From NCBI GenBank assembly GCA_963764625.1, contig CAVXTH010000006.1, forward strand, positions 1,085 through 65,084: a stretch of 64,000 nt of DNA, written 5' to 3'. Positions 481-50,910 of the stretch are shown piece after piece. Under the pieces are notes generated by a model, which was not told where the DNA came from, did no database searches, and saw only the letters and a program-made list of their open reading frames with translations. The position numbers were made by a program, and so were the translations under genes. Source of the DNA: Candidatus Krumholzibacteriota bacterium. Its GTDB lineage: Bacteria > Krumholzibacteriota > Krumholzibacteriia > JAJRXK01. Numbering within the stretch: position 1 is the stretch's first letter; each line of letters starts with the position of its first letter.

Positions 481-641
481 GGTGCACGTGGGGCCAGAGA
501 GTGAGAGTCGGGTGAGCGGCCAGAATAAGGGAAACGATCTTCGAGAGCCAGAGTGAGTGACGGTGGATCCTCCTTGCACTGGCCGCAGAGCCCGTGCTAC
601 GGTGCATTCACGCCCTGGTCCCCCGTGGGCTTCAGTTTTTC

Positions 642-1235
642 ATGCGTCCACTTCGAATCCTATTTCTGTCCGCACTTGTGACCGGGCTCGTCGTGAGTTC
701 GGTTCTTGCTGGCACCTTGTGCGGGACAGTCCGTGACGCGCAGACTCTGAATCCCGTTCCAGCTGCCGGTATTTTCCTCTACCAATCGAACGTCTACACC
801 GGTCTGAACACCGCCAGTGATAACGCGGGCCAGTACTGCCTCAGCGCGGTTCCTCCCGGCACCTATGACATCGAAGTGCGCGTCGATGACTACCAGACTG
901 CGTGGGTCACTGGGGTCGAAGTTCCAGACGACGCCACTGCGGTCGATCTCTTTTCCTCGGTTCCTGCGGAGCTCGATGCGCCCTGGCCCAATCCCTCGGG
1001 CTCTCAGGTGTTCTTCCGCTATCGCTTGGGCACCACGGTTCCGGTGCGCTTGCTCGTCTACGACGTCCGCGGACGAGTGATCCGCGGATGGGCCGGTCGC
1101 GGCGGTACCGGTGAAACGGAACTTCGCTGGGATTTCCGTGACGACACCGGTCACCCCGTCGCGTCCGGTCTCTACTTCGTCCAGCTGCACGCGGGAGAGC
1201 GTGTTCTCACCCGCCGTCTCGTGCGGATTCGTTAG
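642..1235 (+). CDS. secreted carboxypeptidase-regulatory-like (CarbopepD_reg) domain protein with FlgD-Ig/T9SS-type C-terminal domain
   Basis: ATG at 642 begins a signal-peptide-like N-terminus (MRPLRILFLSALVTGLVVSSVLAG). CTVRD...GTYDIEVR is a CarbopepD_reg-like fold. The C-terminus ...ASGLYFVQLHAGERVLTRRLVRIR matches the Por_Secre_tail pattern. Terminates with tandem TAG-TGA. Confidence 0.6.
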   Translation: MRPLRILFLSALVTGLVVSSVLAGTLCGTVRDAQTLNPVPAAGIFLYQSNVYTGLNTASDNAGQYCLSAVPPGTYDIEVRVDDYQTAWVTGVEVPDDATAVDLFSSVPAELDAPWPNPSGSQVFFRYRLGTTVPVRLLVYDVRGRVIRGWAGRGGTGETELRWDFRDDTGHPVASGLYFVQLHAGERVLTRRLVRIR

Positions 1236-8951: not shown

Positions 8952-9922
8952 CCGAGACACTTCAGCTGCTAGAATAGCGCACACTGAAGGAGGTCTCGAT
9001 ATGAACCAAGAAGTGAAGGACATACTGGAAGCCCGGCGCAGATTCATCGTCCTGGAGTTCGCGCTGAAGAGCGGCAACATCGCCAAGGAATGCCGTGAGT
9101 TCGAAGTGCCAAGGTCTTCATTCTACAGGTGGAAGAAAGCCTACGAGGCAGGCGGGAAAGACGCCCTGCTCCGTAAACGCCCCGTAGCAAAACGTCACCC
9201 GCGGCAAATCCCACCAGAGTACGTCGAGAAGATTCTCCACCTGAAATCGACCTACCATCTCGGGCCTCAACGGATCGCCTGGTATCTCGAGCGCTACCAT
9301 GACTTCAAGACCTCCTGTTCAAGCGTCTACCGCACGCTCAAGCGCAACGGCGCGGTCCCCTGCCGCGACATGTTGGCCGCCGTGCAATCCACACCCGCCG
9401 CTACGCCAAAAGGGTCCCTGGCCATCAGATCCAGGTAGACGTGAAGTTCCTGAATCTGAGAACAGAGGATGACCGTAAGATCCGCCGCTATCAATTCACG
9501 GCCATTGATGATGCCACTCGCGTCCGTGCTCTGAAGATCTACCAGAGACATAACCAGAAGAGCGCCATCGACTTCATCGATTACGTGGTCGAGAAGTTCC
9601 CCTTTCGGATCCCCACCGTCAGGACGGATCGCGGCCACGAGTGGCAGGCTCAGTTTCACTGGCACGTCGAGGACAAAGGCATGCGGCACGTGTACATCAA
9701 ACCACGGTCCCCACAGTTGAACGGCAAGGTTGAGAGGTCGCACAGGACAGACCAGGAGGAGTTCTACCAGCTCCTGACGTACACGGATGATGTGGATCTG
9801 AATGCAAAGCTGAGGGAGTGGGAGAAGTTCTACAACCTCAGCCGGCCTCACGGAGCTCACAACGGGAAGACACCTTACGAAGCCCTGAAACGTCTGTTAG
9901 AATAGCGGCAGACTTGTCTCGG
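8952..9922 (+). mobile_element. IS481-family-like insertion sequence (~970 bp) with short terminal inverted repeats
   Basis: CCGAGACA at 8952-8959 is an inverted match to TGTCTCGG at 9915-9922. These flank the transposase. The size fits IS481-like elements. Confidence 0.55.
9001..9905 (+). pseudogene. IS481-family transposase (HTH + rve DDE) split by a frameshift near 9355-9362 (CCCC run)
   Basis: ORF1 ends ...YRTLKRNGAV. The frame of ORF2 read upstream gives PLPRHVGRRAIHTRRYAKRVPGHQIQVDVKFL...YQFTAIDDATR, contiguous IS481 homology. A 1-nt shift is therefore required. Confidence 0.65.
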
Positions 9923-9981: not shown

Positions 9982-10659
9982 ATGAAGATAGCAATCTCTC
10001 TCGCCATAGCATTGGGCAGCCTGCTCTCCTTCTCTACAGCGTTCGCCCAGAATATCGCCTTGACCTTTGACGAAGCTGGAACAACAAACATCCTTGATGG
10101 CCGCTCCGATCTCGTTCCCAACCCAGACATGTTCAATTATCCCTCTGTGATCGTATGGGTCATCGCGTATGACATTCCTGAACTCTCTGGATATGAGTAT
10201 AACCTGACCTCAACGGACGCATCTGCGATTGCGAGCACGCCGACCACTTATCCCTCCGAGGGTTCGGATTACGCTACCCTTCCCGGTGATGTTCGTGTCG
10301 ATACTGGGATCTGCTTCCAAGCGGGCGGCGCTGAAGCGGGACCCGACCCTACTCATATCCGCCTGGCGAAGCATCAGTTCACCTGGTTCTCACCCCCGGC
10401 CGTGGATGTGATCTACTGCATCAATCCTTCGCAGGCTTCGGTGAATCTGAGCGGCGCGACGGCTCCACAGTACACCCAGTGTATCTCGAACCCGCCTTCG
10501 AAGCTCTTCGGAATCGCCCGTGAGTCGTCCTTCAGCCCATGTCCTCCCGAAGGCTGCACATGGCTATACTTCGAGTGGGATCCAGATGGCAGGCCCACGA
10601 ATGGATGCATAATACCTACCGAAGCCCAGAGCTGGGGAACACTGAAGGCGGCATACTAG
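9982..10659 (+). CDS. secreted protein; founding member of a paralog family with conserved extreme C-terminal motif (...QSWGTLKAAY)
   Basis: RBS gaaagg precedes ATG 9982. Signal peptide MKIAISLAIALGSLLSFSTAFAQN. Ends with tandem TAG-TGA. A paralog sits at 47777-48455. Confidence 0.6.
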   Translation: MKIAISLAIALGSLLSFSTAFAQNIALTFDEAGTTNILDGRSDLVPNPDMFNYPSVIVWVIAYDIPELSGYEYNLTSTDASAIASTPTTYPSEGSDYATLPGDVRVDTGICFQAGGAEAGPDPTHIRLAKHQFTWFSPPAVDVIYCINPSQASVNLSGATAPQYTQCISNPPSKLFGIARESSFSPCPPEGCTWLYFEWDPDGRPTNGCIIPTEAQSWGTLKAAY

Positions 10660-13542: not shown

Positions 13543-14199
13543 TCAGTGGAACAGGGCCTTCACCGCACCCCAAGATTCCTCGCCCGTGGAGACGGGCCTG
13601 GTTTGTCCCGTCACCCGCATGGTGGCCTGGCCTGAGTTGTTCGAAATCCAAGAGCCGGGGTTGCCCCAAAACTCGTGCCATCCCGCTGCGAGGCCCGTGT
13701 AGCCCACCGTGTTCGAGTTCCACACGACCTGGGAGTCATTCGGGCCCGAGGCGGACACGATCACCCAGTACTGCGCGCCGTCGGTCAACGAGAAGCTATT
13801 GATGTAGACGGTGATCGGGGCGCCGACGCCAGGATAGCTCGGCAAGGCCCCGCTGACATGCCAGGTTTGGAGCACCGTTCCCGGAACGCCGGCATTGTCA
13901 TCGGCCACGGATATGTCGACCTCGTTGTCGCCGTAATCGAGGGTCAGACCCAACTCGAACTTGTACGAATCGTAACCGGTGCCACTGACGGTGAAGGCCA
14001 TGGCCACGTCCGAATCGGACGTGCCCAGCCCCATGGACAAGTAGTCGTTGATCCAGTGGGAGAAGACACCCGCCGTCGAATCGTAGGTGTCTCCCGTATC
14101 GAAGTTGTCGAAGAAGAAGGTGGTTGCGCTCGCGACGGAGGTGATTGATGACACGAGCAGGGTGGCCGCGATGGCCCGCGCCAGGGATCGAAGCTGCAT
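13543..14199 (-). CDS. secreted protein with C-terminal ...ESWGAVKALFH motif (same terminal tag family)
   Basis: Signal peptide MQLRSLARAIAATLLVSSITSVASA. Soluble-looking Ser/Thr/Gly/Asp-rich body. Shares the terminal decapeptide with five other proteins in the window. Confidence 0.55.
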   Translation of the reverse strand: MQLRSLARAIAATLLVSSITSVASATTFFFDNFDTGDTYDSTAGVFSHWINDYLSMGLGTSDSDVAMAFTVSGTGYDSYKFELGLTLDYGDNEVDISVADDNAGVPGTVLQTWHVSGALPSYPGVGAPITVYINSFSLTDGAQYWVIVSASGPNDSQVVWNSNTVGYTGLAAGWHEFWGNPGSWISNNSGQATMRVTGQTRPVSTGEESWGAVKALFH

Positions 14200-15263: not shown

Positions 15264-17984
15264 CTATTCCTCGCGCTTGACCTTGCGCTGCAGCTCCTTG
15301 AACCAATTCGTGACGAGCACGATCTGGGATTTGCCCTCGACACTCTGGTCCTCGGCCGAGATCGGCGGCGCCATGACGATGGCGCGCTTCCCATCAGGAG
15401 TCGTCATCGAAGTGCGCCAGTTGATGGAGCGAACGAAGGCATCCCGTTGGGTCAATTGGGGAACTTCCGCCTGGACGCCCCCACCGCTGTACACCAGAGG
15501 AATGCGCAAGAAGCCACGGGCATCGCGCGCGTAGAAAACCTTGTCTTCGGCTCCCCAATCGTCCGACTGGATCTGAGTTTTCGACTGTAGGATCTCCCAA
15601 CGGCCCGGGGTCACCGGGAAATGACGCAGGTAGATTTGCCATTCGTCGCCACGGTTTTGCACGTAGGCCAACCACTTTCCGTCGTGAGAGAACTGTCCAC
15701 TGAATTGCTGGTCGGGACCACCCGCTACGAGGGTGGGTTCGGCGTCGAGGTTGGTGAGATCCAAAAGATAGGCGTCCCACTGATCGCCTCCTTGCCAAAA
15801 GGTCGTGAGCATCCAGCGGCCATCTGGCGAGACGGAATCGGCGAGGAGGGTGTTGCGTCTGCTGAACAAATCGACTTCTTCGCCCGATCCGTCGGCGGGT
15901 TTGCGATAGAGCACATACTCGCCGCTCTTCGACGGGCGAGTGTAGTAGTAGAACTTGCTGTCGGGCGACCAACAGCCGGCGATGTCTCCCCCCGAATCGA
16001 AGGTGAGACGATTTTCGACTCCGCTTGCCAGATTCACGATGTAGATCTCGCGCGCGGCGTCGGTTCCCCGCATCACGGCGACCGATTCCTGGTCGGGAGA
16101 AATCGCGGGAGCCATCAGGTTCGCCAGGGTTCCGATCCGGCGAAGGTCTCCCGTCTGAAGATCGAACCAGGCGAGCTGGGAGCGTTGGTCGATTTGAGCT
16201 GCGGTCTGGTAGACCAGAGTTCCGTTGGGTGCGAAGGCGAACTGGGCCGAGCCATCGTCGGTTTCCTGATCGCCGATGGAGGTTCTCACGTTATCCAGCA
16301 CCGGCGTGGCCAGCCCCGCGGTGGTTCCTGCATTGGGATCCATGGGGATGGCAAACACCGTGCTCTTGCGGGCGAAGAGCAGGTAGCCGCTCTGGACGTA
16401 GCGCGGCGAGGCGCCGCCATGGTAGACGGTGCGACGCTTCTTCGTTGCCAGGTCTACCAGGTCGATGTCCCCCTCGTCGTAGTTGCGTCCGAAGAACTGG
16501 CACATGAACAGCACCGAGTGTCCATCGGGCATCGCAAAGGGCCAACGGTGGGAGCGCTCGGCGCGAGTGGTATCCAGAGTGGTGAGAGATTGCGGGATCC
16601 CGTCGCTGAGGGAGACCACCGAGAGCCCCGAGCTGAAGTTGGAGGAGAAGACGATGGTGGATTCGTCCACCCAGGCAACTCCGCGCGAATCCACCGCATC
16701 GCAGATCTCGACGGGAGTGCCGCCGGTCACGCTGACGCGCTCCAGTTTTCCGTCAGCGGTGAAGCCAAGCCACTCGCCATTGGGGCTGTAGCAGGCGATC
16801 TTCGCCGAGTGTGTTCCGTCCAGAGTGCGGCTCTGTAGGATGTCCAAGCGGCGCAGGTGAATCCGATCGCCGGCGAGATAGGCCAGTTCATTGCCGCCAG
16901 GAGAGAGAAAGACGTTGGTCGCGACGTCCGTCTGCAGTTTGTCCTGCTGGTCGAGCTGGATCGAGAGCTGAAGCGAAGGGAGCGTCTCACTTCCCTTGCG
17001 GGAAGGCCAGAGCCACGCGGCCGCGGCCAAGAGCACGGCGACGGCAGTAAGTGCCCACGGCAGGATGATTCTCGCGCGCGAACGGGGGGCTTCCATCATC
17101 AGCGAAGTTTCGGTCTCAAGGAGAGCGGACGGGTCCTCTTTCCACCGTTCCAGGCGCACCCTGGCCTCGCCGATGTCGCGCAGACGCTTGCGGGGATCGC
17201 GTTCGAGGCAACGCTCGAGCAGGCGCCGTACTACGGCCGGTGTCTCCTCCGGCAGCGCATCGTAAGGCGGGTGATCACGCAGCACCGCGGCGAGGGTGTC
17301 GCTTACCGTTTCACCCTCGAAGAGACGCTGACCGGTCAACATCTCCCACAGAATTACGCCGAAGGACCAGAGGTCGGCGCGACGATCGACGCTCTTGCCC
17401 TTGGCTTGCTCGGGACTCATGTAGGCTGCCGTACCCAGAATGACACCTTGTTGGGTCATGGCGGCGGTGATGGTAGGGGAGTTTTGCAGGTCTTCTTCCG
17501 CGTTCGACTCGCCCACGTAGGCGCGGGCTAGACCGAAGTCGAGAATCTTCACCTTGCCGTCGCTGGCGAGTTTCACGTTGGCCGGTTTGAGGTCGCGGTG
17601 CACGATGCCCTTCTCGTGCGCCTCCTCCAGGCCCTCGGCGATCTGCCGCGCGACATCGAGAGCGTCATCGATGGGTAGCGGTCCCTTGGCAATGCGCTGT
17701 GAGAGGTCCTCGCCCTCGGCGAGTTCCATCACCAGGAAGTTCTTTCCCTCCGATTCTTCCAAACCGTAGATGGCGGCGATGTTGGGATGGTTGAGCGAAG
17801 CCAGGACCTTGGCTTCGCGCTTGAAGCGCGCCAGGCGCTCGGGGTTGGTGGCCAAATCCAGGGGCAGGAACTTCAGCGCCACTTCACGACCCAGCTTGGT
17901 GTCGCGAGCACGGAACACTTCGCCCATGCCGCCGCGGCCGAGCAGTTCCTCGATTTCGTAGTGCGAGAAAGTCTTGCCGATCAA
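15264..17984 (-). CDS. Ser/Thr protein kinase fused to TM segment and TolB-like (PD40) beta-propeller
   Basis: Starts with TTG (LIGKTFSHYEIEELLGRGGMGEVFRA). Kinase motifs HRDLKPANV and DFGLA are present. A TM helix is followed by WD40/PD40-like repeats. Confidence 0.85.
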   Translation of the reverse strand: MIGKTFSHYEIEELLGRGGMGEVFRARDTKLGREVALKFLPLDLATNPERLARFKREAKVLASLNHPNIAAIYGLEESEGKNFLVMELAEGEDLSQRIAKGPLPIDDALDVARQIAEGLEEAHEKGIVHRDLKPANVKLASDGKVKILDFGLARAYVGESNAEEDLQNSPTITAAMTQQGVILGTAAYMSPEQAKGKSVDRRADLWSFGVILWEMLTGQRLFEGETVSDTLAAVLRDHPPYDALPEETPAVVRRLLERCLERDPRKRLRDIGEARVRLERWKEDPSALLETETSLMMEAPRSRARIILPWALTAVAVLLAAAAWLWPSRKGSETLPSLQLSIQLDQQDKLQTDVATNVFLSPGGNELAYLAGDRIHLRRLDILQSRTLDGTHSAKIACYSPNGEWLGFTADGKLERVSVTGGTPVEICDAVDSRGVAWVDESTIVFSSNFSSGLSVVSLSDGIPQSLTTLDTTRAERSHRWPFAMPDGHSVLFMCQFFGRNYDEGDIDLVDLATKKRRTVYHGGASPRYVQSGYLLFARKSTVFAIPMDPNAGTTAGLATPVLDNVRTSIGDQETDDGSAQFAFAPNGTLVYQTAAQIDQRSQLAWFDLQTGDLRRIGTLANLMAPAISPDQESVAVMRGTDAAREIYIVNLASGVENRLTFDSGGDIAGCWSPDSKFYYYTRPSKSGEYVLYRKPADGSGEEVDLFSRRNTLLADSVSPDGRWMLTTFWQGGDQWDAYLLDLTNLDAEPTLVAGGPDQQFSGQFSHDGKWLAYVQNRGDEWQIYLRHFPVTPGRWEILQSKTQIQSDDWGAEDKVFYARDARGFLRIPLVYSGGGVQAEVPQLTQRDAFVRSINWRTSMTTPDGKRAIVMAPPISAEDQSVEGKSQIVLVTNWFKELQRKVKREE

Positions 17985-18041: not shown

Positions 18042-20750
18042 TCAGCGATTCAAATTCGTCCAGCCCATGACCATGTGCAGGGGCCGGTGATCGTCGGTCG
18101 CGCCCGCATCGCTCACCAGGAAACGTTGTCCGTCGGGCGTCACGCAGAACTCGTGGCCTACGGTCAGAGGAGGGGGAAAACTCGAGTTGACCAGAACCGC
18201 CTTCTCCGGACGCGGAATCTCGCCGCCAAGATCCAGCTCGGTCGCAAAGAGCCGGTTGTCGAATCCCTGGCTGTAGATCCGCTTTCCATCGGGACTCCAG
18301 CGCAGGAAGAAGCTGGGCTGCGTCGTGACCTGCCACTTGCGATTGGTGGGAGGAAAGCTCTTCAAGAAGGGCTGCAAGGAGTTGGACGAAACCACGATGA
18401 AGGCAATCCACTTGCCGTCGGGCGAGAAGTACCCGCCCACCGTGTTCTTGGAGCTCGCGTCGAGTACGATGGGTGGAGTGCTCAGATCCACTGGAGTGAT
18501 TTCTACCCGTATGATGGCTTTCCCATCCAGGCTGTCCCGTACCGTATACGAGAGGTACTTACCGTCCGGACTCACATCCACAACCTGGACGATGTCCTTG
18601 CGGTTGTACACGGGACGCGGATCTTCCTTCCCATCGGGCTCGATCGCGAAGATTGCCGTGCTGTCAGCCGACGTAACCTTGTAGTAGATGACTTTGCCGT
18701 CGCGCGACCAAACTGGAGCTTGTTCACTCGTTGCGGCGAAGGTGAGCCGGCTGTCCACTCCCGAATCCACCTGGTGTAGCCACAGATCACCGAAACCGGT
18801 GCGGCTATCCCACTTGGTGAACACCACTCGCTTGCCATCGGGCGAAATGTCGAATCCTCCCAGACCGCCCGCGGAATCGAGTTGGCCGAGACTCTTGCCC
18901 TCTCGGTCGACCCAGACCAGGCGCGTGCCGGCGGTTTCAGCATAGCCCGGATGATACACGAGGGTTCCGTTGGCGCTGGCCGAGAACAGGGCCAAGGACG
19001 CGCCAGGAATCAAGCCACAGTCCTTCGCGATCAGAATGGGACTTCCGGTGAACTCGCCCCTCGCAAGATCGAAAGCCCGCGCGAAGATGTTTCCGTTTTT
19101 CCGGTAGAGGATCTTGCCCGCGAGGTACTCGGCCTGCCCCGTGCTGTGGAGGATCGTCTTGGGCTCGCCCCCTTCGAGGTCCCCCAGCATGATGGCCACT
19201 GGCTCCTCGTTGCTCGAATCGGCGGTGCGCGCGGCAAAGAGGAAATGCCGCCCATCGTGCATACTTCTTGGGAGCCGGTGTGAATTCGCAGGCGTGCCCT
19301 GCGAAAGGTCGGTGACCGCCTTGGGCTTGCCACCCTTCAAATCGACGCGAAAGATCGGAGTCGAGGAATCCGGAGCAAAGAGGATGGTATCGTCCTTTAG
19401 CCAGCAACCTCCCTTGCCGTTGCTCGCATCAGCAATCACGCGGGTGCTCCCGCTCTCCATGTCGTAGATGTTCAGAGTTTGATTGCCAAAAAAGCCGATG
19501 GAGCGGCCGTCGGGGGCCCAGAAGGGGTACTGACTGTCTTCGGTCCCCACCAACTGGACCGGTTCTGCCTGATTGAGCTTGCGTAGCCACAGCGTATGCG
19601 TACCGCTGGAGTCACGGGCACCGAAGACGATGGAGCGGCCGTCGGGGGAGACGGCGGCGGGCGCCGGGTTCGCTCCGTTCAAGTGGAAGCCGGTATTTTC
19701 CGGCGGCTCGATGGAGCTGCGGAGCACTCCCGCGTTCTCGCCTTCGCCACGCTCGCCATCGCCGTGGCCCAGGGCGAGCGAGACCACCAAGGCCAGCGCG
19801 AACACCGCGGCGAGCCCCCAGGGGATCCACCGCGTTCGTTTCGCGACCACGGACACGCTTTCCTGCGCTTGCTGCGCCAGGGAAGCGTTGAGCGTCAGGC
19901 TGCTTGCCGGATCTTCGAGTAGAATGCGTGCTTCGCCCATGTCCCGCAGGCGCAGCTTCGGGTCGCGTTGCAGGCAGCGCTGGAGAAGCAGAGTGAGGGC
20001 GGGCGTCAGATCATCCGGTAGGCGATCGAAGTCGAGGTTTTCCTTGAGCACTCCGGCCAGGATCTCCGAGACGGAATCGCCCTGAAAGAGCGGCGCGCCA
20101 CAGAGCATCTCGAACAGAATGACCCCGAAGGCCCAGATGTCCGCCCGGCGATCGACCCGCTTGCCCTTGGCCTGTTCGGGGCTCATGTAGGCCGCGGTGC
20201 CCAAAATGGTGCCTGCCTGGGTCATGGCGGCGGTGATGGTGGGCGAGTTGGCCAGGTCGTCGTCGATCCCACTGTCCCCGGAGTAAGCGCGGGCCAGACC
20301 GAAGTCGAGGATCTTCACCGTACCGTCCGACGCGAGCTTCACGTTGGCCGGCTTGAGATCGCGGTGGACCACTCCCTTCTCGTGCGCGTCTTCCAGCCCC
20401 AGGGCCATCTGACGGGCAATTTCGGTCACTTCCTCCACCGGAATGGGCCCTCGGGCGATGCGCGCGCTGAGGTCCTCACCCTCGGCCAGCTCCATGGCGA
20501 GAAAGCTCTGCCCCTTGTCCTCCTCGAAGCCGTAGATCGCCGCGATGTTGGGGTGATTCAGGGACGCCAGCACTTTCGCCTCGCGGCGGAAACGCGCCAT
20601 GCGCTCGGCGTCGCTGGCCAAATCCAGAGGGAGGAGTTTGAGCGCAACCTCGCGATCGAGAGCGGTGTCCCGCGCGCGCCACACCTCGCCCATGCCTCCC
20701 TGGCCCAGCTTCTCCAGGATCTCGTAGTGGGAGAGCGTCTTACCGATCAC
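18042..20750 (-). CDS. Ser/Thr protein kinase fused to TolB-like beta-propeller (tandem paralog of 15264..17984)
   Basis: GTG start (VIGKTLSHYEILEKLGQGGMGEVWRA). HRDLKPANVKL and DFGLARA are present. Same architecture as the upstream paralog. Confidence 0.85.
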   Translation of the reverse strand: MIGKTLSHYEILEKLGQGGMGEVWRARDTALDREVALKLLPLDLASDAERMARFRREAKVLASLNHPNIAAIYGFEEDKGQSFLAMELAEGEDLSARIARGPIPVEEVTEIARQMALGLEDAHEKGVVHRDLKPANVKLASDGTVKILDFGLARAYSGDSGIDDDLANSPTITAAMTQAGTILGTAAYMSPEQAKGKRVDRRADIWAFGVILFEMLCGAPLFQGDSVSEILAGVLKENLDFDRLPDDLTPALTLLLQRCLQRDPKLRLRDMGEARILLEDPASSLTLNASLAQQAQESVSVVAKRTRWIPWGLAAVFALALVVSLALGHGDGERGEGENAGVLRSSIEPPENTGFHLNGANPAPAAVSPDGRSIVFGARDSSGTHTLWLRKLNQAEPVQLVGTEDSQYPFWAPDGRSIGFFGNQTLNIYDMESGSTRVIADASNGKGGCWLKDDTILFAPDSSTPIFRVDLKGGKPKAVTDLSQGTPANSHRLPRSMHDGRHFLFAARTADSSNEEPVAIMLGDLEGGEPKTILHSTGQAEYLAGKILYRKNGNIFARAFDLARGEFTGSPILIAKDCGLIPGASLALFSASANGTLVYHPGYAETAGTRLVWVDREGKSLGQLDSAGGLGGFDISPDGKRVVFTKWDSRTGFGDLWLHQVDSGVDSRLTFAATSEQAPVWSRDGKVIYYKVTSADSTAIFAIEPDGKEDPRPVYNRKDIVQVVDVSPDGKYLSYTVRDSLDGKAIIRVEITPVDLSTPPIVLDASSKNTVGGYFSPDGKWIAFIVVSSNSLQPFLKSFPPTNRKWQVTTQPSFFLRWSPDGKRIYSQGFDNRLFATELDLGGEIPRPEKAVLVNSSFPPPLTVGHEFCVTPDGQRFLVSDAGATDDHRPLHMVMGWTNLNR

Positions 20751-20901: not shown

Positions 20902-21735
20902 ATGAGAAGATATCTAGTGCTATCGCTTCTCACTTTGTTCGTGCTCGCCGCGGCTAGCCCGGCCCTGGCGAACCACTTCACAGACTTCACGCCCGCTGCG
21001 GACTGTTCGGGCTGGAGTGTCTCGGGATCGGTCGATCTGGTCGGGGATCCCTACTCGGACCTGAACTACAGTGTCGTGCTCAACGACGGAACTTCGGATA
21101 TCAAGACCTTCTCCGACACGATTCACTTCACGCCCGAAAGCCTGGACTTCTCGATCGGCTCCGATTGGGGGATGGAACTGTGCGGAGATTTCACGGCCAC
21201 CGGAACTTTCAATCTGGTGGGACCACAGGGTGGAGATGACAGGAGCTTCGAGATCACCTTCACCTGCGATTGTCCGCCGCCACCGCCTCCTCCTTCGGAG
21301 GGATGCACGCGGACGCCCGGCTACTGGAAGACGCATCCGGACGATTGGCCGGTTAGCGGTCTGACGGTGGGCTGCGTCGACTACACCGAGGCGCAGATCC
21401 TCGAGATCATGTGGATGCCCACGCGGGGTGATGCCACGATCAAGCTGTTCCATCACCTCGTTGCCGCCAAATTGAATGTTCTGAACGGGGCCAGCGACTC
21501 CATTTCGGACGACATCGATGCGGCGGACGACTTTCTGTGTGACCATGCTCTCTTCAGCCGGCCCGCGGGCGATCTGAAGACGACGTGCAACGACCTGAAG
21601 GACACCTTGGAGTACTACAACCAGGCGTCCGACTGCGATGGTGGCTACGAGAGTAGCGTGGTGACCCAACGCTGGTCCGCCATGACTCCGGCGCAGTCGA
21701 AGAGTTGGGGCTCGGTAAAAGCCTCGTTCAAGTAG
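20902..21735 (+). CDS. secreted protein with poly-Pro linker and C-terminal ...KSWGSVKASFK motif (terminal tag family)
   Basis: RBS aaaggaagg precedes ATG 20902. Signal peptide MRRYLVLSLLTLFVLAAASPALA. CDCPPPPPPPSEGC linker. Confidence 0.55.
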   Translation: MRRYLVLSLLTLFVLAAASPALANHFTDFTPAADCSGWSVSGSVDLVGDPYSDLNYSVVLNDGTSDIKTFSDTIHFTPESLDFSIGSDWGMELCGDFTATGTFNLVGPQGGDDRSFEITFTCDCPPPPPPPSEGCTRTPGYWKTHPDDWPVSGLTVGCVDYTEAQILEIMWMPTRGDATIKLFHHLVAAKLNVLNGASDSISDDIDAADDFLCDHALFSRPAGDLKTTCNDLKDTLEYYNQASDCDGGYESSVVTQRWSAMTPAQSKSWGSVKASFK

Positions 21736-24811: not shown

Positions 24812-27610
24812 TCACGATTTCTGCTTCAGAAGTGCCTGGAAGCGCGCATTGTCCCGCAGGGGATCGTAGTCGGGAGAGCTCTTCAGTAGGGCCAGAGAGG
24901 TCGCATCCTGGGGCTGGCTCAACAACTCCTCCAGGATCGAAACTGCACGGTCACTATCACCGACCCTCGCGTAGATCAGAGCGAGGTCGTGTTGGCGAAA
25001 AACCCGCGTCCAGGCGTCGACGCGCGCGGGGAAAGCGTCCAGTGCCTTCTTGCCCTCACTGATCGCAGCCTCCTTTTCGCCCAGACCCGCCAGTGCGAGG
25101 CCGAGGGCGCTGTGGAGCGTGGAGGTGTCGGGGGCTTTCTCGAGGGCATGGCTCAGGAGATCGCGCGCGCGCTCGAATTCCGACTTTGATTTCCCGGATT
25201 GATCCATCGCACTGTACACCATGGCTCGCAACAGGGGACCACAGAGGGCTTGGAATTGCCCGCCAGCGAGATCGGGTACCTGCTGGGCCACCGAGAGCGC
25301 CCCCGCGTAGTCGTGAGTGGTGAAGGCGCTCGCATAGGTGACGAACCGCAAATCGCTGGTATCAGTCTGCGGACTGGCCGACAGGTCTTCCTTGGCCTGG
25401 GCGAAATCGCCTTTGAGTAGGGACGCCCATGCCTTGGATTCGTAGAGAGTGGCACTGCTCGGATCGAGCCCGATCGCGCGGGTGTAGAAATCTTCGGCTT
25501 CCTGGTATCGGCCCAGAACCTGGAGGGTCTGGGCCATGTCGAAGCAGGTTGTGGAGCTCTTCGGCGCGAGCTTCGAGACCCTTTGAAAGGTATCGAGTGC
25601 ATCCTGAAATCGTCCCTGGCGCCGCCGAATATAGCCAATCACCGAGAGGGTTTTCGCGTCTTGCGGACGGCTCTTCAGGGCTTCATCGAACGCGGCAAGT
25701 GCCGGCTCGTAGTCTTTCAATCCCCAATAGTAGAAATAGCCGCGCGCGACATACGAGTCGGGGGAATCCGGAGCGAGGAGAAAGGCCTTGTCGACCGCGG
25801 CCTTCGACTGCGCCAGTCGCACTTCAGATCGGTCCCAGCCGAAGTGCACGAAGCCGGCATTCGCCTGTGCGATCTGCACGTAGGCCAATTGGAACTCGGG
25901 ATCGAGTTCGACAGCGCGTCGCAGCAGACGGAGAGCTTCCTCCCACACGCCCTGCGTGTATTGGACCCTGCCCTCGAGAAGTTCCCAGGCACGCAGATAC
26001 GCGTGATAGGCGTCCATGTTTTGGGTGGGAACCGAGGCGAGCACCTCTTCATCCTTTTGCACCAGCGTCACATCGAGTTTGCGCACCACTGCTTCGGCGA
26101 TCTCACTCTGGACTTTGAAGACCTCATCCATGGAGCGGTCGTAGTTTTCCGCCCATACGTAGGAATCGTCTTTGGCTTTGATGAGTTGCGGGGAGATGCG
26201 AACCCGGCTCGCACCCTCCTTCGTGCGCTCCCAGCGGATGGAGCCTTCCAGCACGTAGTCGATGCCCAGGTCCTTCGCCACCTGGTCCATGGTTTTCCCG
26301 TTGCGGTCATACTGTTGCGCGCTGGTGCGGGAGAGCACTGACAACCCCGCGATGCCGGCCAATCGCGTGGTGATCTCGTCGGTCATGCCGGCCGCGAAGT
26401 ACTGGTCGTCGGCGGAACCCAAATTCTCGAAGGGGAAGACCACGATGGTGGGCTTGTGACCGGTGGCTTCGGGACTCGTGGCCGCGGACGGCGAGCTCAG
26501 GCCTTTGGTCGTTTCGCCCGGCGGGCCCACGCGACGCGACTGCATCCAGACCACGACCAGAGCGAGGACGACCACGATGCCGATGGTGGAGAGCCAGAGG
26601 ACGCGGGCTTTGGACGAGCGCGGTGGCCCCGCCGTCTCGAAAGAGGGGGCGGAACCCTGCGAGGGGCGGCTTACCTCGGCGGAACTCTGAGCCGGCGGGT
26701 ACGAAGCGCCGGCTGCCGCGGTTGCCGGCGCGACTTCCGGCGCGGCGTGTTCCCCCGAGAGAACTTCCTCGCGCAGAATTTCCAGATCGTAGCGAAGCCC
26801 TTTAGCCGACTCGTAGCGCCGATCGGGATTCTTCTCCAGGCAGCGGCGAATGATGCGGCTGAGCTGACGTGGCAGACCCGGCTTGATGTTGGACACGGGA
26901 GTGGGATCGTCGCGGAGCACTGAACTGATGGTGGACATGCTCGTGTCGCCGGAGAAGGGTCGCGTCCCCGTGATCATCTGGTAGAAGATGATCCCCAGCG
27001 AAAAGACATCCGAGCGCGAGTCCACCGCTTTGCCTTCCGCCTGCTCGGGGGACATGTAAGCCGCGGTTCCCAGGATGTTCCCTTCACGCGTCATGTCCTT
27101 TCCGACGGCCAGGGTTGCCTCGGACCCGTCGAAGGCCTCTTCGAGCAGTTTCGCCAGGCCGAAATCGAGAATCTTTACCCGGCCGTCTTGGTCGAGCATG
27201 ATGTTGTCGGGTTTCAAATCGCGATGTGTGATCCCTTTCGCGTGGGCCGCGCTTACTGCCCCCGCAATGGGAATGGCCAGGTTCAGGAACTCGCGCAGCT
27301 GCATTCCCTCCTGGCGAATGTGTTCCCGGAGAGTGGATCCCTCCACCAGCTCCATGATCAGAAGCAGCTGATTCTCGACCTCCTCCACCGCGTGGATCGT
27401 CACGACGTTGGGATGGTTGAGGGCGGCGATGGCACGCGCCTCACGTTCAAAGCGGGCCTTGCGATGCGCATCCTTCGCGAAATCGGGGGGCAAGACCTTC
27501 AATGCGACCTCGCGGCCCAACTTCGTGTCGCGTGCGCGGTAGACGTTTCCCATGCCTCCTTGACCCAGGAGCGCGAGGATCTCGTAATGGGAGATGGTTT
27601 TGCCGATCAA
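24812..27610 (-). CDS. Ser/Thr protein kinase with TM segment, TolB-N-like domain and TPR repeats
   Basis: TTG start (LIGKTISHYEILALLGQGGMGNVYRA). HRDLKPDNIML and DFGLAK are present. A TM helix is followed by PTIVVFPFENLGSADDQYFAAGMTDEITTRLAGIAGLSVLSRTS and TPR-like repeats. Confidence 0.85.
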   Translation of the reverse strand: MIGKTISHYEILALLGQGGMGNVYRARDTKLGREVALKVLPPDFAKDAHRKARFEREARAIAALNHPNVVTIHAVEEVENQLLLIMELVEGSTLREHIRQEGMQLREFLNLAIPIAGAVSAAHAKGITHRDLKPDNIMLDQDGRVKILDFGLAKLLEEAFDGSEATLAVGKDMTREGNILGTAAYMSPEQAEGKAVDSRSDVFSLGIIFYQMITGTRPFSGDTSMSTISSVLRDDPTPVSNIKPGLPRQLSRIIRRCLEKNPDRRYESAKGLRYDLEILREEVLSGEHAAPEVAPATAAAGASYPPAQSSAEVSRPSQGSAPSFETAGPPRSSKARVLWLSTIGIVVVLALVVVWMQSRRVGPPGETTKGLSSPSAATSPEATGHKPTIVVFPFENLGSADDQYFAAGMTDEITTRLAGIAGLSVLSRTSAQQYDRNGKTMDQVAKDLGIDYVLEGSIRWERTKEGASRVRISPQLIKAKDDSYVWAENYDRSMDEVFKVQSEIAEAVVRKLDVTLVQKDEEVLASVPTQNMDAYHAYLRAWELLEGRVQYTQGVWEEALRLLRRAVELDPEFQLAYVQIAQANAGFVHFGWDRSEVRLAQSKAAVDKAFLLAPDSPDSYVARGYFYYWGLKDYEPALAAFDEALKSRPQDAKTLSVIGYIRRRQGRFQDALDTFQRVSKLAPKSSTTCFDMAQTLQVLGRYQEAEDFYTRAIGLDPSSATLYESKAWASLLKGDFAQAKEDLSASPQTDTSDLRFVTYASAFTTHDYAGALSVAQQVPDLAGGQFQALCGPLLRAMVYSAMDQSGKSKSEFERARDLLSHALEKAPDTSTLHSALGLALAGLGEKEAAISEGKKALDAFPARVDAWTRVFRQHDLALIYARVGDSDRAVSILEELLSQPQDATSLALLKSSPDYDPLRDNARFQALLKQKS

Positions 27611-46282: not shown

Positions 46283-46893
46283 ATGTTCAACAAGAGGCTA
46301 TTCAGTCTCGTACTTACTGCGGGCCTGATCTTAGGTCTCGCTGGCCTGGCAATGGCCGGTGTTCCCGATCCGGGAGCTAGCACTGTCTACACCAGTGGTG
46401 GGGAAGCAACTCTCACTCCGGGTGGTCTGGCCCAGAGTCTCGCGATCTACGGCGTGTCTGTCACAGTCACGGTTCGCGATGGCAATGGTCTGGCGATTCC
46501 GCGTTTCCGGCCCAGGATATCTGGCTGGATGACATTGGTGATGCCAACATCAATCTGTGCCAGTCCGGTAGCACGGCCGACGCGCAGACCAATGGTGATG
46601 GATTTACCACGATCTCCGGCGTCATGGCCGGTGGTGGTTGGACGCAGTCCGGTCTGTCCGTCTACGTCAGCGGCGTTGCCGTCACTGGCGGAATGGGCCC
46701 CAGTCTTAGCATCGACCTCAACAGCCCGGATATCACCGGCGACCGGATCGTGGACTTGGGCGACATCAGTATTTTCCAGTCTGATGTTCTTCCGCCAAGT
46801 AACGCATTCCGATCCGACTACACCCATGACGGGATTGTCGACCTCGGTGACATCAGTCTTTTCTCGTCTTGGATCGGTGACTCGTGTCCCTGA
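46283..46893 (+). pseudogene. secreted protein with two dockerin-like Ca-binding repeats; reading frame broken near 46498-46515
   Basis: RBS taggagg and a signal peptide MFNKRLFSLVLTAGLILGLAGLAMA. After ...GNGLAIP the homologous continuation (QDIWLDDIGDANINLC...DRIVDLGDISIF...DGIVDLGDISLF) lies in another frame (ORF 46624..46893). Confidence 0.5.
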
Positions 46894-46999
46894 GTAGGGC
46901 GTAGGAGGTTTGGGTGCGGCTTTCGCACTCGTTTTCGAGCAAGCGTGCGCCAGTGTTCGAACAACAACCATTGGCTCACCTCTCTAAAGGAGATGGCTC

Positions 47000-47566
47000 A
47001 TGCTTAAGAAGGCAATGTTTCTCACCCTCGCCTTGCTCGTGGGCGTCGTCGCGGGTGCTTCGGCACAACAATGCGCGATCGGCGTCTACGCGGATTCGCT
47101 GGGGACCCAGTCGGCCATTGCGCCGGTACGCGATCAGGGCAACCCTAACACGTTCATCGATGTGTACTACGTACTTAGAGTCGAGGACCTGGTGTTGGGT
47201 GCTGCATGGTATCGCGAAGTCACGGGCTTCAATGCCTCGACTTATGCGATCGACTGGGAGTCTTACGGTACCTTCCTCGATAATAAGCCGGAAGGCTGGC
47301 GTATCGGCTTGGGTACCTGTCAACTGGGGTTCGGTGGCGCTTCCATCACCCTGCTGAAGGAGACTCTGTTCTTGGTGGATGACTACTCGGGCGGTACCGG
47401 GTCCATCCAGGTCATCCCGAATACGTTGCAGAACGCCACGGGCACGGCTTACTCAGATTGTCTGGGTCAAGTGAAGCCGTGTGGCGTGGGTTCTTCTTTG
47501 ACGATCGAGAGCGTCATTCCCGCTCCGGGCAAGAGCTTCGGTGCGGTAAAGGCTCTCTTCGAGTAG
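47000..47566 (+). CDS. secreted protein with C-terminal ...KSFGAVKALFE motif (terminal tag family)
   Basis: RBS aaaggag precedes ATG 47000. Signal peptide MLKKAMFLTLALLVGVVAGASAQQ. Confidence 0.6.
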   Translation: MLKKAMFLTLALLVGVVAGASAQQCAIGVYADSLGTQSAIAPVRDQGNPNTFIDVYYVLRVEDLVLGAAWYREVTGFNASTYAIDWESYGTFLDNKPEGWRIGLGTCQLGFGGASITLLKETLFLVDDYSGGTGSIQVIPNTLQNATGTAYSDCLGQVKPCGVGSSLTIESVIPAPGKSFGAVKALFE

Positions 47567-47776
47567 CTTAGCTTGTAGCCCTCTGGGCTATTTGCTATCG
47601 CGATCGCAACGGGTGGGTGGCGGAACGTCCATAGATGGCCTAACGCCATCCGCCGAAAACCCCGCTGGAGATTTGCCCGATCAGGGGCACTTTGAAAGCG
47701 CAACAAAGGCACCTGTGGGTAGAGGTCGTTCGTGGCTCCCCACCGCCTTATTGTCATGACAACGGAGGACTTCTTC

Positions 47777-48455
47777 ATGAAGAAGCTAATGATTCTCGCC
47801 GCGGTTCTTGGCATCCTCGCCATGGCTTCCATGTCGTTTGCCCAGAACATCGGTATCACCTTTGATGAGGCCGGTACGCAGACCACTCTTGATGGCCGTA
47901 CGGGTCTCCTCCCAAACCCGGCCTTGGGGAATCTGCCGTCGGCGTTCGTGTATGTCGATCGCCTACGACATTCCCGAGGTCTTCGGGTACGAGTACATCT
48001 CAGTTCGACGATGGTACCGCAATCGCCGGCAGCTCCCGTCTTCTACCCCACCGCGACCAGTGCCAATTTCGGCGTCGGCGGTGACGTACGTGTGGGTACG
48101 GGTGTGTGCTTCGCGTGCGGGTAGCGCCGAAGCTGGCCCCGGTTGCGACCCAGATCCGTCTGGCCAGCACGTGTTCTCTTTCTTCGCCACTCCCGCCGAT
48201 GGATGTCATCTATACGATCGGCCCCATTCGACGGGAGCAGGATGGGACGGCCCCGCATTACACCGAGTGTGTCAGCAGTCCTACGCCGCTGGACTTCGGT
48301 CTCGCGAACCACTCCCTCAACCTCGGTTGCGCGCCTGATGGTGCCGCGGTCGTCGTTCTGCAGTGGGACGCCCAGAGGACACTCCTGCGCGCTGCAATCC
48401 TGAGATCGTAGGTTCGAAGGAGACGAGCTGGGGTGCTCTGAAGTCCGGCTTCTAA
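47777..48455 (+). pseudogene. paralog of the 9982..10659 secreted protein, disrupted by at least three frameshifts and an in-frame stop; retains terminal ...TSWGALKSGF
   Basis: MKKLMILAAVLGILAMASMSFAQNIGITFDEAGTQTTLDGR matches the 9982 protein. Continuing homology (IAYDIPEVFGYEY / AGSAEAGPG / MDVIYTIGP / ETSWGALKSGF) hops between all three frames. Confidence 0.6.
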
Positions 48456-48831
48456 GCCAGGATTGAACGAATCCTCCTCCTGGAGGATGACAACGCGGCT
48501 CCGAGGACTCGGAGCCGCGTTTCTTCGTGCTCCCCTGAGCCTGAGGACTGTCGCTCGGGCCCGCGGCTTCGTATATTGCCAGCGCCGCATCCGGTCGAGT
48601 CCCAGAGTGTTCCCGGTAGGGCCGAAGACGGGAATTCACTTGACCTCCACGGGAGCGCATGGTACTGGAATTCAGATTCCATGGGGCGCGCGGCTTTCCA
48701 TTCTTGGCGAGGTGGGGTGGTGTGGGTTGTCCGCGGCGTGGAACTCTGGACAATCGAAAGCTCTTATCCAATCGGCCCTGCGTGCGAGTTCGCTGCGCGG
48801 ATGGGCCTGGGATCTTCAGGAGGAGTTAGGT

Positions 48832-49582
48832 ATGAAGAAGACGGCCATCGGCGTTCTGGTTGTGTTGGCGATGGCAGCGGGCTGGATTGCCCCCGCGGCA
48901 GCTACCGACGCGCCTTACAATCCTTGGGGCTGGATGTTCCTGAGTACGGACACGAAAAACTATGTGTGTAGTGGCACCTACGCCGGCAGCGCCACGCTAT
49001 CGATCTATCTCATCATCGAGGCGCCCAACTGGGGTGTCGCCGACAACTACTTCGGCATGGAGGCCGGAGTCGACTATCCGACGGCGCTGTTCAATACGCG
49101 GATGGGAACCGACGAGGCGCCCAATGGGGCCTTCTTTGCCGCATCCTGCGCCGCTGGACACTGCTCGTTCGCCGTGGGGACGCGGCACGCCGGTCCACAC
49201 GAATCCCTGGACCGCGGTGACTCTGGACTTCGTCGGGTTCAGTAACCTCGACAATCTCACCTTCAGTCTGGCGCCGTGGGACATCGGCAGCCCGCGCACC
49301 CTGGGCGGCCCCGGCTGGTCCTACTACGACAACCTCGACCCACCGGTTCTGCCGCTGCAGGCGGGCGATGGCACCGAGGGCCATCCCGGCTGGCAGCAGG
49401 GCTTCGTGGTGTTGAACTACAACCAGGGGACGGCGGCGTCGACGCCTTTCCCGGCCACCGTCTTCCGCGACGATGGCAGTGGGGTGCCCTGGCCGAACGC
49501 TGACGCGGGCGATCCTTGCCTGCGCACCAAGTTGGTTCCCGCGCAGGAGAAGTCCTGGGGCTCGCTGAAGGCGGCCTACTAG
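48832..49582 (+). pseudogene. secreted protein with C-terminal ...EKSWGSLKAAY motif, apparent frameshift near 49180-49215
   Basis: Signal peptide MKKTAIGVLVVLAMAAGWIAPAAA in frame 1 to ~49200. The C-terminal 130 aa, including the motif, are in frame 2 (ORF 48962..49582). Confidence 0.55.
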
Positions 49583-49841
49583 ACCCGGTCGTCGTCGGGC
49601 CGAACGGTCTGAACGCGAGAGAGGAGGGCCCCCTCGGGCTCTCCTTTTCGCATGAGAGGGGGAGGGGGCCTCGGAGGCGCCGAATTGACCCGGCCTTCCC
49701 CGTGCGACTATACTCTCTCAGAAGGCCGCTGGCCGGCCTGTAGGCTCTGGGCTCGCGCTGAGTGAGGAGTGGCTCCCGCGTTGGGTCCGTGTGGCAGTCC
49801 TCCCTCCCCTGAAGAAACCCCCCTGGGACAAGGAACGGCTC

Positions 49842-50864
49842 ATGCCGCGTCACATCCGTTTGCTCCTCTGCCTCACGGCGGTTCTGACCGCTTTCGTGCC
49901 CCCCGCAGCGGCCGCGACAATCGCGGGATGGCAGGTCCTGGAGAGCAGCCCCCAGCGGCTTCACCTGCGCATCGAGCTCCCTGTGGCCACGGTGGAGACG
50001 GTCGACGAGGGGAGCACCCGCTACCTGTCTCTGAGTCTGCCCGGTTTCCTGTCTCTGGCGGAACCGGGACTTCCCTTGCTTCCCCAGCAAGGGGCCTGGA
50101 TCGCAGTGCCCCCCGAAGGTGACGCGAGCCTGCGGGTCACGATCTTGAAGACGGAGCGTCTGCCCGCCGGGCGCCTTCTGCCCTCAGCTACCGCCGAGCC
50201 GCCGCTCCCCGGAGAGCATCCGAATCCCGCGAGCGTGCGCGAAGTCACCGTCGAGGGCCCGGGATACGCCACCTTTCGCTCCGGAAGCGGAAACCTCGCG
50301 ACGCTGGGTCAGCCGGTGTGGTCGCATGGGCAACGCATGGCGCCCCTGCGACTACGTCCGTTCCTGGTGAGCAATCCCGGCGCGCCGGTGGAGCAGGTCA
50401 CCTCCCTGGATCTCGTGGTCGAATTTCCGGCGGCTGGCGGAATTACCGGAGCTGGGGGAGAACTCGATACGGTCACGCTCTCGCGGCTTCTGAACCCCAA
50501 AGTTGCCGCCGGCTGGCATACCGAGAGCCCCCAGACGCGCCTGCGTCGTTCCTCCGCCCTGAAGAGCGCGCAGTTGAAGACATTCCCGAAGGCCGCGGCC
50601 GCCGATCAGATCGTTCCCATGGACCAGTTGACGCTGTTGAGCGACGAATACCGGATTCCGGTGAGCGCCAGTGGTTTGGTCCGCGTTCATCTGGCCGATC
50701 TCTTCGGCACCCTCGGGTTCCCCAGCGGGATCCGGCACGAACAGCTACGACTCTACCAGAAGCGTCCCTCGACTCCGGGCAGCGCCAGCTACCCGACGCC
50801 GCTGAGCGTGGACGTTCCCTTCCATTTCTACGGGAGTCCGGATCCCCAGAGCGAGATCACGTAG
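49842..50864 (+). CDS. secreted protein, possibly the N-terminal pro-region of the downstream C25 peptidase separated by a frameshift/stop
   Basis: Signal peptide MPRHIRLLLCLTAVLTAFVPPAAAA. Ends at TAG 50862-50864. The downstream gene's frame is open back to 50806 and reads ...SSDIIIFDAVPI. Confidence 0.45.
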   Translation: MPRHIRLLLCLTAVLTAFVPPAAAATIAGWQVLESSPQRLHLRIELPVATVETVDEGSTRYLSLSLPGFLSLAEPGLPLLPQQGAWIAVPPEGDASLRVTILKTERLPAGRLLPSATAEPPLPGEHPNPASVREVTVEGPGYATFRSGSGNLATLGQPVWSHGQRMAPLRLRPFLVSNPGAPVEQVTSLDLVVEFPAAGGITGAGGELDTVTLSRLLNPKVAAGWHTESPQTRLRRSSALKSAQLKTFPKAAAADQIVPMDQLTLLSDEYRIPVSASGLVRVHLADLFGTLGFPSGIRHEQLRLYQKRPSTPGSASYPTPLSVDVPFHFYGSPDPQSEIT

Positions 50865-50910
50865 CAGCGACATCATCATCTTCGATGCGGTTCCCATCGA
50901 CCGGGACAAC

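Follow-up and report, generated by a model that had tools for sequence, protein, structure and literature searches.

A conserved C-terminal tail on Sec-exported proteins of Krumholzibacteriota: a candidate receptor-read sorting or anchoring peptide

Analysis of a 64-kb stretch of DNA from a Candidatus Krumholzibacteriota bacterium (contig CAVXTH010000006.1 of assembly GCA_963764625.1; this whole stretch is called the window below) revealed six genes for exported proteins that share a C-terminal tail with the consensus P-[TVS]-[AP]-V-[EQ]-x-T-[ST]-W-G-x-[ILV]-K-A-x-[FY], located mostly at the very end of the protein. Several features characterize this tail: (i) it is terminal and has a constant anatomy, (ii) it is modular and is attached to unrelated proteins, (iii) its carriers possess N-terminal signal peptides, (iv) it is present in multiple copies per genome and occurs widely beyond the window, and (v) no model of Pfam-A (2025) or NCBIfam 20.0 covers it. 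The tail probably serves as a sorting or anchoring peptide of Sec-exported surface proteins that is read by a receptor.

Translation of the window in all six frames and a search with the pattern [WF]GxΦKxx[FYW], where Φ stands for [LVIM], gave exactly six matches, each of them 0-1 residues ahead of a stop codon. Four matches are on the forward strand and close the genes listed with them: 10633-10656 (gene 9982-10659, ending QSWGTLKAAY), 21706-21729 (gene 20902-21735, ending KSWGSVKASFK), 47537-47560 (gene 47000-47566, ending KSFGAVKALFE), and 48429-48452 (gene 47777-48455, ending TSWGALKSGF). A further forward match, 49556-49579, closes gene 48832-49582 (ending KSWGSLKAAY), and the single reverse-strand match, 13572-13549, closes gene 13543-14199 (ending ESWGAVKALFH). 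The six endings reported by the first-pass annotation, an earlier reading of the same DNA, were thus all recovered at their places and at their distances from the stop, and the signal peptide that it had assigned to every one of the six proteins was found, as one of Sec type, at all six N-termini. When the window was simulated 200 times with a second-order Markov model, matches averaged only 0.09 and terminal matches 0.005 per simulation, which speaks against chance. The codons of the motif vary among the window copies (AGC, AGT, TCC or TCT for Ser; GGA, GGC or GGT for Gly; AAG or AAA for Lys). Thus, the conserved and selected object is the peptide and not a DNA site, and a DNA-level element behind the motif was rejected.

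The family of the first tagged gene was found, in a scan of species-representative genomes, in two metagenome-assembled genomes (MAGs) labelled Candidatus Krumholzibacteriota (loci L001-L007). Of the 20 matches to a relaxed motif found over 127 kb from two related MAGs, 18 have a stop 0-4 residues downstream; the two non-terminal matches have Arg for Lys and look like chance. The first-pass annotation had named an equal frequency of internal and terminal copies in the proteome as grounds for abandoning its proposal. In the window and the seven related loci, the distribution is far from equal: a loosened core, [ST][WF][GS]x[ILVM]K, is terminal in 24 cases and non-terminal in three, and the three non-terminal matches all have S for G, none of them inside a long open reading frame (ORF). 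The related MAGs also contributed a new type of cargo, a right-handed beta-helix protein of about 385 residues ending VPSEGTSFGKLKAKFQGQH. A beta-helix paralog of a tagged protein, encoded at L004:2899-4068, ends SSVSSLKAQFQRK; this degenerate tail without W-G may be a decaying or variant tag.

For a scan of metagenomes, a single DNA pattern was derived by back-translation of the tail, written as [ST..]-W-G-x-Φ-K-A-x-[FY]-stop, and at least 120 loci were obtained. Among the matches listed, the motif closes an ORF of at least 100 amino acids in 79 loci, with a GC content of 0.47-0.71; of the other 41 matches listed, some are chance hits in short ORFs, some belong to ORFs truncated at a contig end, and the rest are instances of the internal motif GTDWWGE[IV]KAIFW. 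The seed pattern itself imposes the terminal position, and only matches beyond the seeds provide a fair test of it. There were 18 such non-seed relaxed matches in 580 kb of the metagenome loci: 15 at 0-5 residues from the stop, two at 6-7 residues, and one attributable to chance. The GTDWWGE[IVLM]KAIFW family was rejected as a tag; its next codon is TGG, making it an internal look-alike in a separate conserved protein family. It was observed on GC-rich metagenome contigs (L019, L024, L030, L039, L040, L048, L057, L066, L073, L082, L099, L102, L103, L120 and L126). As a control, the same DNA pattern was applied to viral contigs (IMG/VR), where it gave four hits and no true tag. Three of these (L008-L010; contigs of 94-357 kb, GC content 0.36-0.37) come from a stop-rich frame of a conserved element that reads V[TPS]TWGRIKA[AT]F before a stop, and these giant viral matches are a chance look-alike in the non-coding frame of a conserved gene. 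The fourth comes after an in-frame stop and holds no tag.

The anatomy of the tail was derived from 91 tagged ORFs of the pattern-seeded loci among the matches listed, whose tails were right-aligned and weighted by cluster. Positions -8 to 0, counted back from the terminal aromatic residue, are partly forced by the search pattern; the preference for S or T at -8 and everything upstream are not. Read toward the C-terminus, the information content stays at a background of about 0.4-0.6 bit as far as position -16, climbs to about 1-1.4 bit across positions -15 to -9, where the pattern is P/G, T/V/S, A/P, V, E/Q, S/E, T, and is high from -8 to 0. Thus, the conserved block, which had been described as a decapeptide, extends to about 16 residues. 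Two families were gathered by whole-protein homology rather than by the motif (alignments A1 and A6); in both, conservation of W, G and K is complete or reaches at least 90%. Variant endings include SSWGSIKKKHQ, TWGAIKKLYEK, STWSQLKANYR and VSFSGLKAMYR. These variants, with S for G, F for W, or His for the aromatic residue, leave [ST]-W-G-x-[ILV]-K as the firmest core. Among the relatives of the 20902 protein (P0067-P0103), one sublineage has K-K-K-H-[QN] in place of K-A-x-[FY], ending EESSWGSIKKKHQ, and the terminal aromatic residue is therefore not universally required.

Among the matches listed, 81 of the 91 tagged ORFs end exactly at the aromatic residue, and 10 continue for 1-7 residues; most members of the 20902 family carry 1-3 extra residues after the motif. 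A terminal hydrophobic or aromatic residue with Ala at -2, as seen in those 81 ORFs, is Φ-x-Φ-like, and by this likeness the tail might be a ligand that a PDZ protease of the periplasm, or a peptidase for C-terminal processing, recognizes through the free carboxylate, acting as a signal for quality control, degradation or maturation. We regard this possibility as improbable. Extensions of 1-7 residues are tolerated, the whole 20902 family has either 1-3 polar residues past the motif or His for the aromatic residue, and conservation reaches 16 residues upstream, well past the length of a PDZ ligand. Moreover, there is no evident reason for a common degron on dozens of unrelated surface-type proteins.

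The proteins that carry the tail in the window are of several kinds. Gene 1 (9982-10659, forward strand) encodes a signal peptide, a cohesin-like beta-sandwich and a flexible tail, and its tag, IIPTEAQSWGTLKAAY (10609-10656), is immediately followed by the stop. Its product has 21 homologs of 203-272 residues in a collection of 5.8 billion proteins; all of them end in SWGxLKxx[YF] at the last residue, and the cysteines C111, C146, C167, C192 and C209 are invariant in the family or nearly so. Gene 2 (13543-14199, reverse strand) encodes a signal peptide and a domain of about 190 residues with the tag PVSTGEESWGAVKALF plus H at 13546-13596; it has no Pfam or NCBIfam match and no BLAST likeness to the other cargoes of the window. 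The product of gene 3 (20902-21735, forward strand) consists of a signal peptide, an Ig-like beta-sandwich, a Pro linker, a helical 'PGYWK' domain, a disordered linker, and the tag MTPAQSKSWGSVKASF plus K (21682-21732). More than 50 homologs of this protein retain the tail, and NCBI names of its relatives include Candidatus Krumholzibacteria and Krumholzibacteriia. Its distant homologs from other lineages, one tail-less example of which is named Candidatus Chlorohelix, have only the helical domain in common with it and end straight after this domain, without a tail. The tail and the acidic variable linker are therefore an add-on.

The remaining three tagged genes are clustered on the forward strand. 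Gene 4 (47000-47566) is a remote homolog of the gene 1 family with the tag VIPAPGKSFGAVKALF plus E at 47513-47563; gene 5 (47777-48455) is a frameshifted paralog of gene 1 with the tag IVGSKETSWGALKSGF at 48405-48452; and gene 6 (48832-49582), frameshifted near 49178-49186, carries the tag LVPAQEKSWGSLKAAY at 49532-49579 on an unrelated cargo. In tblastn searches, the intact ortholog of gene 5 (P0019) matches three frames of the window, and the alignment of gene 6, which has intact orthologs in L003, L005 and P0023, spreads over two. A search of representative proteins (E<=1e-3) returned the window fragment P0022, the ortholog P0023 and two repeat artefacts. Genes 5 and 6 had been presented as single ORFs, a description that does not hold, as each is spread over two or more reading frames; the breaks may reflect an assembly error or real pseudogenes. 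They belong to a run of consecutive genes within 46283-54129 that are broken by frameshifts (n=4): the dockerin-like gene 46283-46897, 47777-48455, 48832-49582, and the PorU-like gene 49791-50864 plus 50911-54129, the first and the last of which are discussed below. These frameshifts were read against the intact orthologs in L003 and L005, and the truncated product P0022 is present in the public protein collection.

Profile comparisons showed how far the six cargoes are related. Genes 1 and 5 encode paralogs with 52% identity, and the families of genes 4 (A7) and 1 (A1) are remote homologs by hhalign (probability 96.8%, E 2.9e-10, 120 columns). For the family of gene 6 (A8), the sole significant hhalign match to A1 is confined to the last 22 residues (probability 92%, E 5e-7), and for the 20902 family, only the signal peptide is shared. 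The six proteins thus represent four cargo classes, with three of the proteins (9982, 47777 and 47000) forming one cohesin-like superfamily; the claim that their mature regions are all unrelated stands for the four classes and fails within that superfamily. Three of the six proteins have a fold in common, which would fit a tail that is simply the end of a C-terminal domain present in all of them. The profile comparisons refute this explanation, as unrelated families align over the tail and nowhere else; in addition, information content is no higher than background beyond -16, and 14 Pfam families were found upstream of the tail. Like chance recurrence, it has a negligible probability.

The same cargo independence is apparent in the metagenomes, where the 91 tagged ORFs (matches listed) form 32 BLAST clusters. 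In a Pfam search of 80 tagged ORFs, the most frequent domains were Big_5 (13 hits), Beta_helix (four), NosD (three), and CBM96, CBM9 and SusE (two each), and the single hits include LTD, the disaggregatase repeat, Chlam_PMP, PepSY and SnoaL_2. NCBIfam models added DNRLRE (three hits), POMP repeats, choice-of-anchor J (3e-8) and choice-of-anchor R (3e-4); the choice-of-anchor families are named after the alternative C-terminal anchors that they carry. A signal peptide was detected by a strict heuristic in 69 of the 91 tagged proteins, and most of the others are cut by a contig end or have a misplaced start. The cargo types, with carbohydrate-binding modules (CBMs), beta-helices, Big_5 and choice-of-anchor domains, suggest surface or extracellular proteins. 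Tagged genes are dispersed among housekeeping genes, frequently in tandem arrays of paralogs. One such array, L069:1-1941, comprises at least four paralogs of SnoaL/NTF2-like lipoproteins, every one tagged, two of which are extended by 6-7 residues (endings KALYWGGGDG and KVMYGGGSDE). In L132/L133 (GCA_001875255.1 and GCA_002900505.1; 495-kb contig), the gene for the tagged protein P0026 is located between a histidine-biosynthesis operon and a polysaccharide/O-antigen cluster that contains Wzy_C, Polysacc_synt and DegT.

Structure models were obtained with AlphaFold2 for two unrelated cargoes. The model of the 9982 protein (21 sequences) has a mean predicted local distance difference test score (pLDDT) of 86, with a core above 90 and a tail at 61-73 that includes a helix at W218-A224. 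Its best Foldseek matches in PDB are cohesin modules (probability 1.0, E 3e-5, TM-score 0.4-0.65, 8-16% identity), and the protein has no Pfam Cohesin hit. The model of the 20902 protein (46 sequences; mean pLDDT 88) contains the Ig-like sandwich, the helical domain, a disordered linker at 249-267 (pLDDT below 50) and a helix at 269-276. From these two models, we infer that the tail would form a short amphipathic helix on a flexible tether. On a helical wheel, W(-7), I/L/V(-4), K(-3) and F/Y(0) would fall on one face, flanked by G(-6) and A(-2), with the variable positions -5 and -1 opposite; this arrangement would explain why variability is confined to these two positions.

A terminal helix of this kind, modelled on two unrelated cargoes, with the interface-loving residues W, F/Y and Lys on one face and a flexible tether behind it, might also act as an in-plane membrane anchor, binding the lipid of the periplasm-facing leaflet or of the outer membrane by itself and without any receptor. 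This alternative is unlikely for several reasons. The predicted helix comprises only about eight residues and three hydrophobic side chains. The near-invariant G, K and A and the S/T at -8, maintained over 32 clusters, are more than amphipathicity requires, and the upstream P-x-x-V-E-x-T block is conserved too. In addition, the cargo types point to surface or extracellular proteins. The strict conservation of small and charged residues favours recognition by a protein over plain lipid binding.

A second membrane-related explanation, offered as a candidate by the first-pass annotation, is that the tail is a beta-signal of outer-membrane beta-barrels, recognized by the beta-barrel assembly machinery (BAM) or another Omp85 protein. 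The beta-signal consensus, in its generally known form, has a superficial likeness to the tail in the terminal aromatic residue and the Gly seven residues upstream. The folds of the cargo are those of soluble proteins (a Cys-bearing beta-sandwich, a helical domain, beta-helices, CBMs, Big_5), a disordered linker separates the fold from the tail, the tail is modelled as a helix, and no alternating hydrophobic pattern was seen in it. The beta-signal is thus disfavoured, and we consider it very improbable.

The likeness of the gene 1 family to cohesins bears on another alternative, in view of the gene that immediately precedes tagged genes 4-6. That gene (46283-46897, forward strand; recognized by a three-frame read, with an intact ortholog at L005:8494-9105) is frameshifted and encodes a secreted protein that ends in two D-x-x-x-D-G-I-V-D-L-G-D-I-S repeats. 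Judged by eye only, these repeats look like dockerin repeats; no Pfam Dockerin_1 hit was obtained at E<=0.01. A dockerin-like gene beside tagged proteins of cohesin fold could hint at a surface assembly of cohesin-dockerin type in a diderm candidate phylum. The tail itself might then act, in place of a translocation signal, as a docking peptide, similar to a miniature dockerin, through which proteins plug non-covalently into a scaffold or an S-layer-like structure. The cohesin-like fold of the gene 1 family, the dockerin-like gene, which in three genomes immediately precedes three tagged genes, and the many tagged paralogs per genome, which suit a multi-subunit assembly, are consistent with this possibility. 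On the other hand, the dockerin-like reading has no Pfam support, the cohesin likeness is at the fold level only, and no scaffold with repeated receptor modules was seen. A docking peptide overlaps with the receptor-read sorting or anchoring peptide, and the present data do not separate the two. We consider docking a rather unlikely explanation, if the foremost among the alternatives.

In the explanation that we prefer, the tail would be a compact, modular recognition peptide appended via a flexible linker to unrelated Sec-exported proteins. Its last eight or nine residues would fold into the short amphipathic helix, and a shared receptor protein of the cell envelope would read the face formed by W, Φ, K and the aromatic residue. 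The tagged proteins, once exported by Sec, would all meet the same fate through this receptor, being either passed to the cell surface or retained there. The invariant Lys could be a site of covalent attachment, which is a speculation. The first-pass annotation had called the tail a targeting tag; its terminal position, its many copies per genome, the signal peptides and the independence of cargo bear this out, whereas the sorting function itself is one that we infer.

Several observations weigh against the receptor-read peptide. First, no sorting enzyme, receptor, protease or transporter recurs among the 140 untagged ORFs located within 4 kb of tagged genes, and the candidate of a conserved neighbouring sorting gene was rejected on this ground. 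Second, the extensions of 1-7 residues and the replacement of the aromatic residue by His blur the determinant of recognition. Third, the helix is taken from AlphaFold2 segments of modest confidence (pLDDT about 60). Fourth, the only named hosts are Krumholzibacteria. Even with these points considered, we rank the receptor-read sorting or anchoring peptide first and hold it to be probable; the docking peptide and, after it, the in-plane membrane anchor come next, and the PDZ or processing ligand is a minor possibility. A broader interpretation is advanced more tentatively: diderm bacteria may have a new pathway that sorts or anchors proteins once Sec has exported them and for which the tail is the address label. 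The reader of this label would be a soluble receptor or one in the outer membrane, as opposed to a sortase embedded in the membrane. Such a pathway could run in parallel with the type IX secretion system (T9SS) in Krumholzibacteriota and further lineages without cultured members, and might handle dozens of surface proteins per genome.

Components of the T9SS are found near tagged genes. The tagged genes 4-6 are followed by a gene for a PorU-like C25 peptidase/sortase (49791-54129, forward strand; identified by NCBIfam) that is split by a frameshift and has a T9SS C-terminal domain (CTD) of its own. Its match to the NCBIfam model of the T9SS sortase PorU has an E value of 2e-52 and 178 bits, short of the curated cutoff of 420, and its Por_Secre_tail match has 24.3 bits. 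The protein is about 1430 residues long and divergent, with counterparts at L003:12048-16346 and L005:12048-16361; together, the three score 172-178 bits against the PorU model. The order of the dockerin-like gene, three tagged genes and the PorU-like gene is common to the window, L003 and L005; these are closely related, and the conserved order is therefore only circumstantial. The PorU-like gene is followed by MurQ and, two genes beyond, by an AnmK-like gene recognized from a reading of the sequence only. The sole Pfam families that recur among the 140 untagged neighbours are T9SS CTDs (FlgD_ig and Por_Secre_tail, four times each). Proteins with such domains were found in 8 of the 79 tagged loci and in none of the 41 untagged ones (matches listed), a weak association (Fisher p ~0.05).

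Other genes of the window were noted in passing. Two adjoining ORFs at 9001-9905, immediately upstream of gene 1, encode a putative split insertion sequence transposase, with a helix-turn-helix part followed by an rve/DDE-like part (KPRSPQLNGKVERSHRT). Three paralogs of about 900 residues, encoded on the reverse strand at 15264-17984, 18042-20750 and 24812-27610, have an N-terminal Ser/Thr kinase domain by sequence (HRDLKPAN motif); their long C-terminal parts may, as a guess, be beta-propellers.

Proteins with the tail are named 'hypothetical protein [bacterium]' in public records, and no description of the tail was found in the full-text literature, where coverage is incomplete and an earlier description is possible. 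The tail flags a large and readily spotted set of presumably surface-exposed proteins in phyla without cultured members, among them carbohydrate-binding modules, beta-helix proteins and adhesin-like repeats that are now annotated as hypothetical. A profile of the tail would improve genome annotation at once and would enable a search for the partner by phylogenetic profiling.

The comparison with known systems starts from the features listed by Haft for small C-terminal sorting signals: C-terminal location, multiple occurrences per genome, at least three near-invariant residues, a signal peptide, dissimilar cargo and, completing a tripartite architecture, a transmembrane helix and a basic cluster (doi 10.1101/2023.06.07.544157). 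The tail has five of these seven features and lacks the last two. It is terminal and multiple (six copies in the 64 kb of the window and 18 more in the 127 kb of related MAGs), its signature residues are W, G and K in A1 and A6, and signal peptides accompany dissimilar cargo from 32 clusters and 14 Pfam families. No transmembrane helix is present, as the protein ends 0-7 residues past the motif, and no basic cluster follows in the 81 of 91 ORFs (matches listed) that end at the aromatic residue; K-K-K occurs within the motif, and only in the 20902 family. The tail thus resembles the signals of LPXTG/sortase, PEP-CTERM/exosortase, GlyGly-CTERM/rhombosortase and MYXO-CTERM/myxosortase in C-terminal site, multiplicity, signature residues, signal peptide and cargo, and choice-of-anchor domains, which elsewhere bear tripartite signals, are here among the tagged cargo. 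In contrast to these signals, it has neither a hydrophobic transmembrane segment nor an Arg/Lys cluster after the motif. The distinction from LPXTG and PEP-CTERM drawn at first sight of the sequence is therefore sound, and a membrane-embedded enzyme of the sortase type cannot read the tail in the same way.

Like the tail, the T9SS type A CTD (TIGR04183/PF18962) is C-terminal on Sec-exported proteins of bacteria of the Fibrobacteres-Chlorobi-Bacteroidetes (FCB) group, and both are found in the same genomes and loci. The CTD, of roughly 70-100 residues, is a folded beta-sandwich with a Pfam profile of 75-79 positions, whereas the tail has about 16 residues with a predicted helix of about eight. 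None of the tagged proteins has a hit to TIGR04183, PF18962 or PF13860; positive controls from the same window do, including the protein encoded at 594-1235 (forward strand), which has an ordinary type A, FlgD-like CTD (TIGR04183, E 1.3e-8; PF13860; PF18962). The tail is accordingly distinct from the CTD, as had been proposed, and kinship with the start of a FlgD-type CTD was rejected, the CTDs of the same loci having no sequence resemblance to it.

Other short C-terminal elements differ from the tail in their own ways. The BAM beta-signal shares its terminal aromatic residue and is a strand of a barrel, in contrast to a modelled helix tethered to soluble domains. The C-terminal helices of E. 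coli PBP5/6 and the membrane-targeting sequence of MinD are amphipathic membrane-targeting helices, likewise short and terminal, with aromatic and Lys residues; the tail is shorter, far more strictly conserved, including its small residues and the upstream acidic/Thr block, and is found on dozens of exported proteins that are unrelated to one another. Braun lipoprotein, whose C-terminal Lys is linked to peptidoglycan, is likewise an exported protein with an invariant Lys close to its C-terminus. The Lys of the tail precedes the end of the motif by three residues and is not the last residue, and the tagged cargo, in contrast to Braun lipoprotein, looks extracellular. The concept of tagging exported proteins at their C-terminus is known, and the architecture of this tail is not. 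Sortase, exosortase, rhombosortase, myxosortase and the T9SS are each a dedicated envelope machine found through small C-terminal signals; the tail has the hallmarks of such a signal in another architecture, and a machine for reading it must work differently from each of these five.

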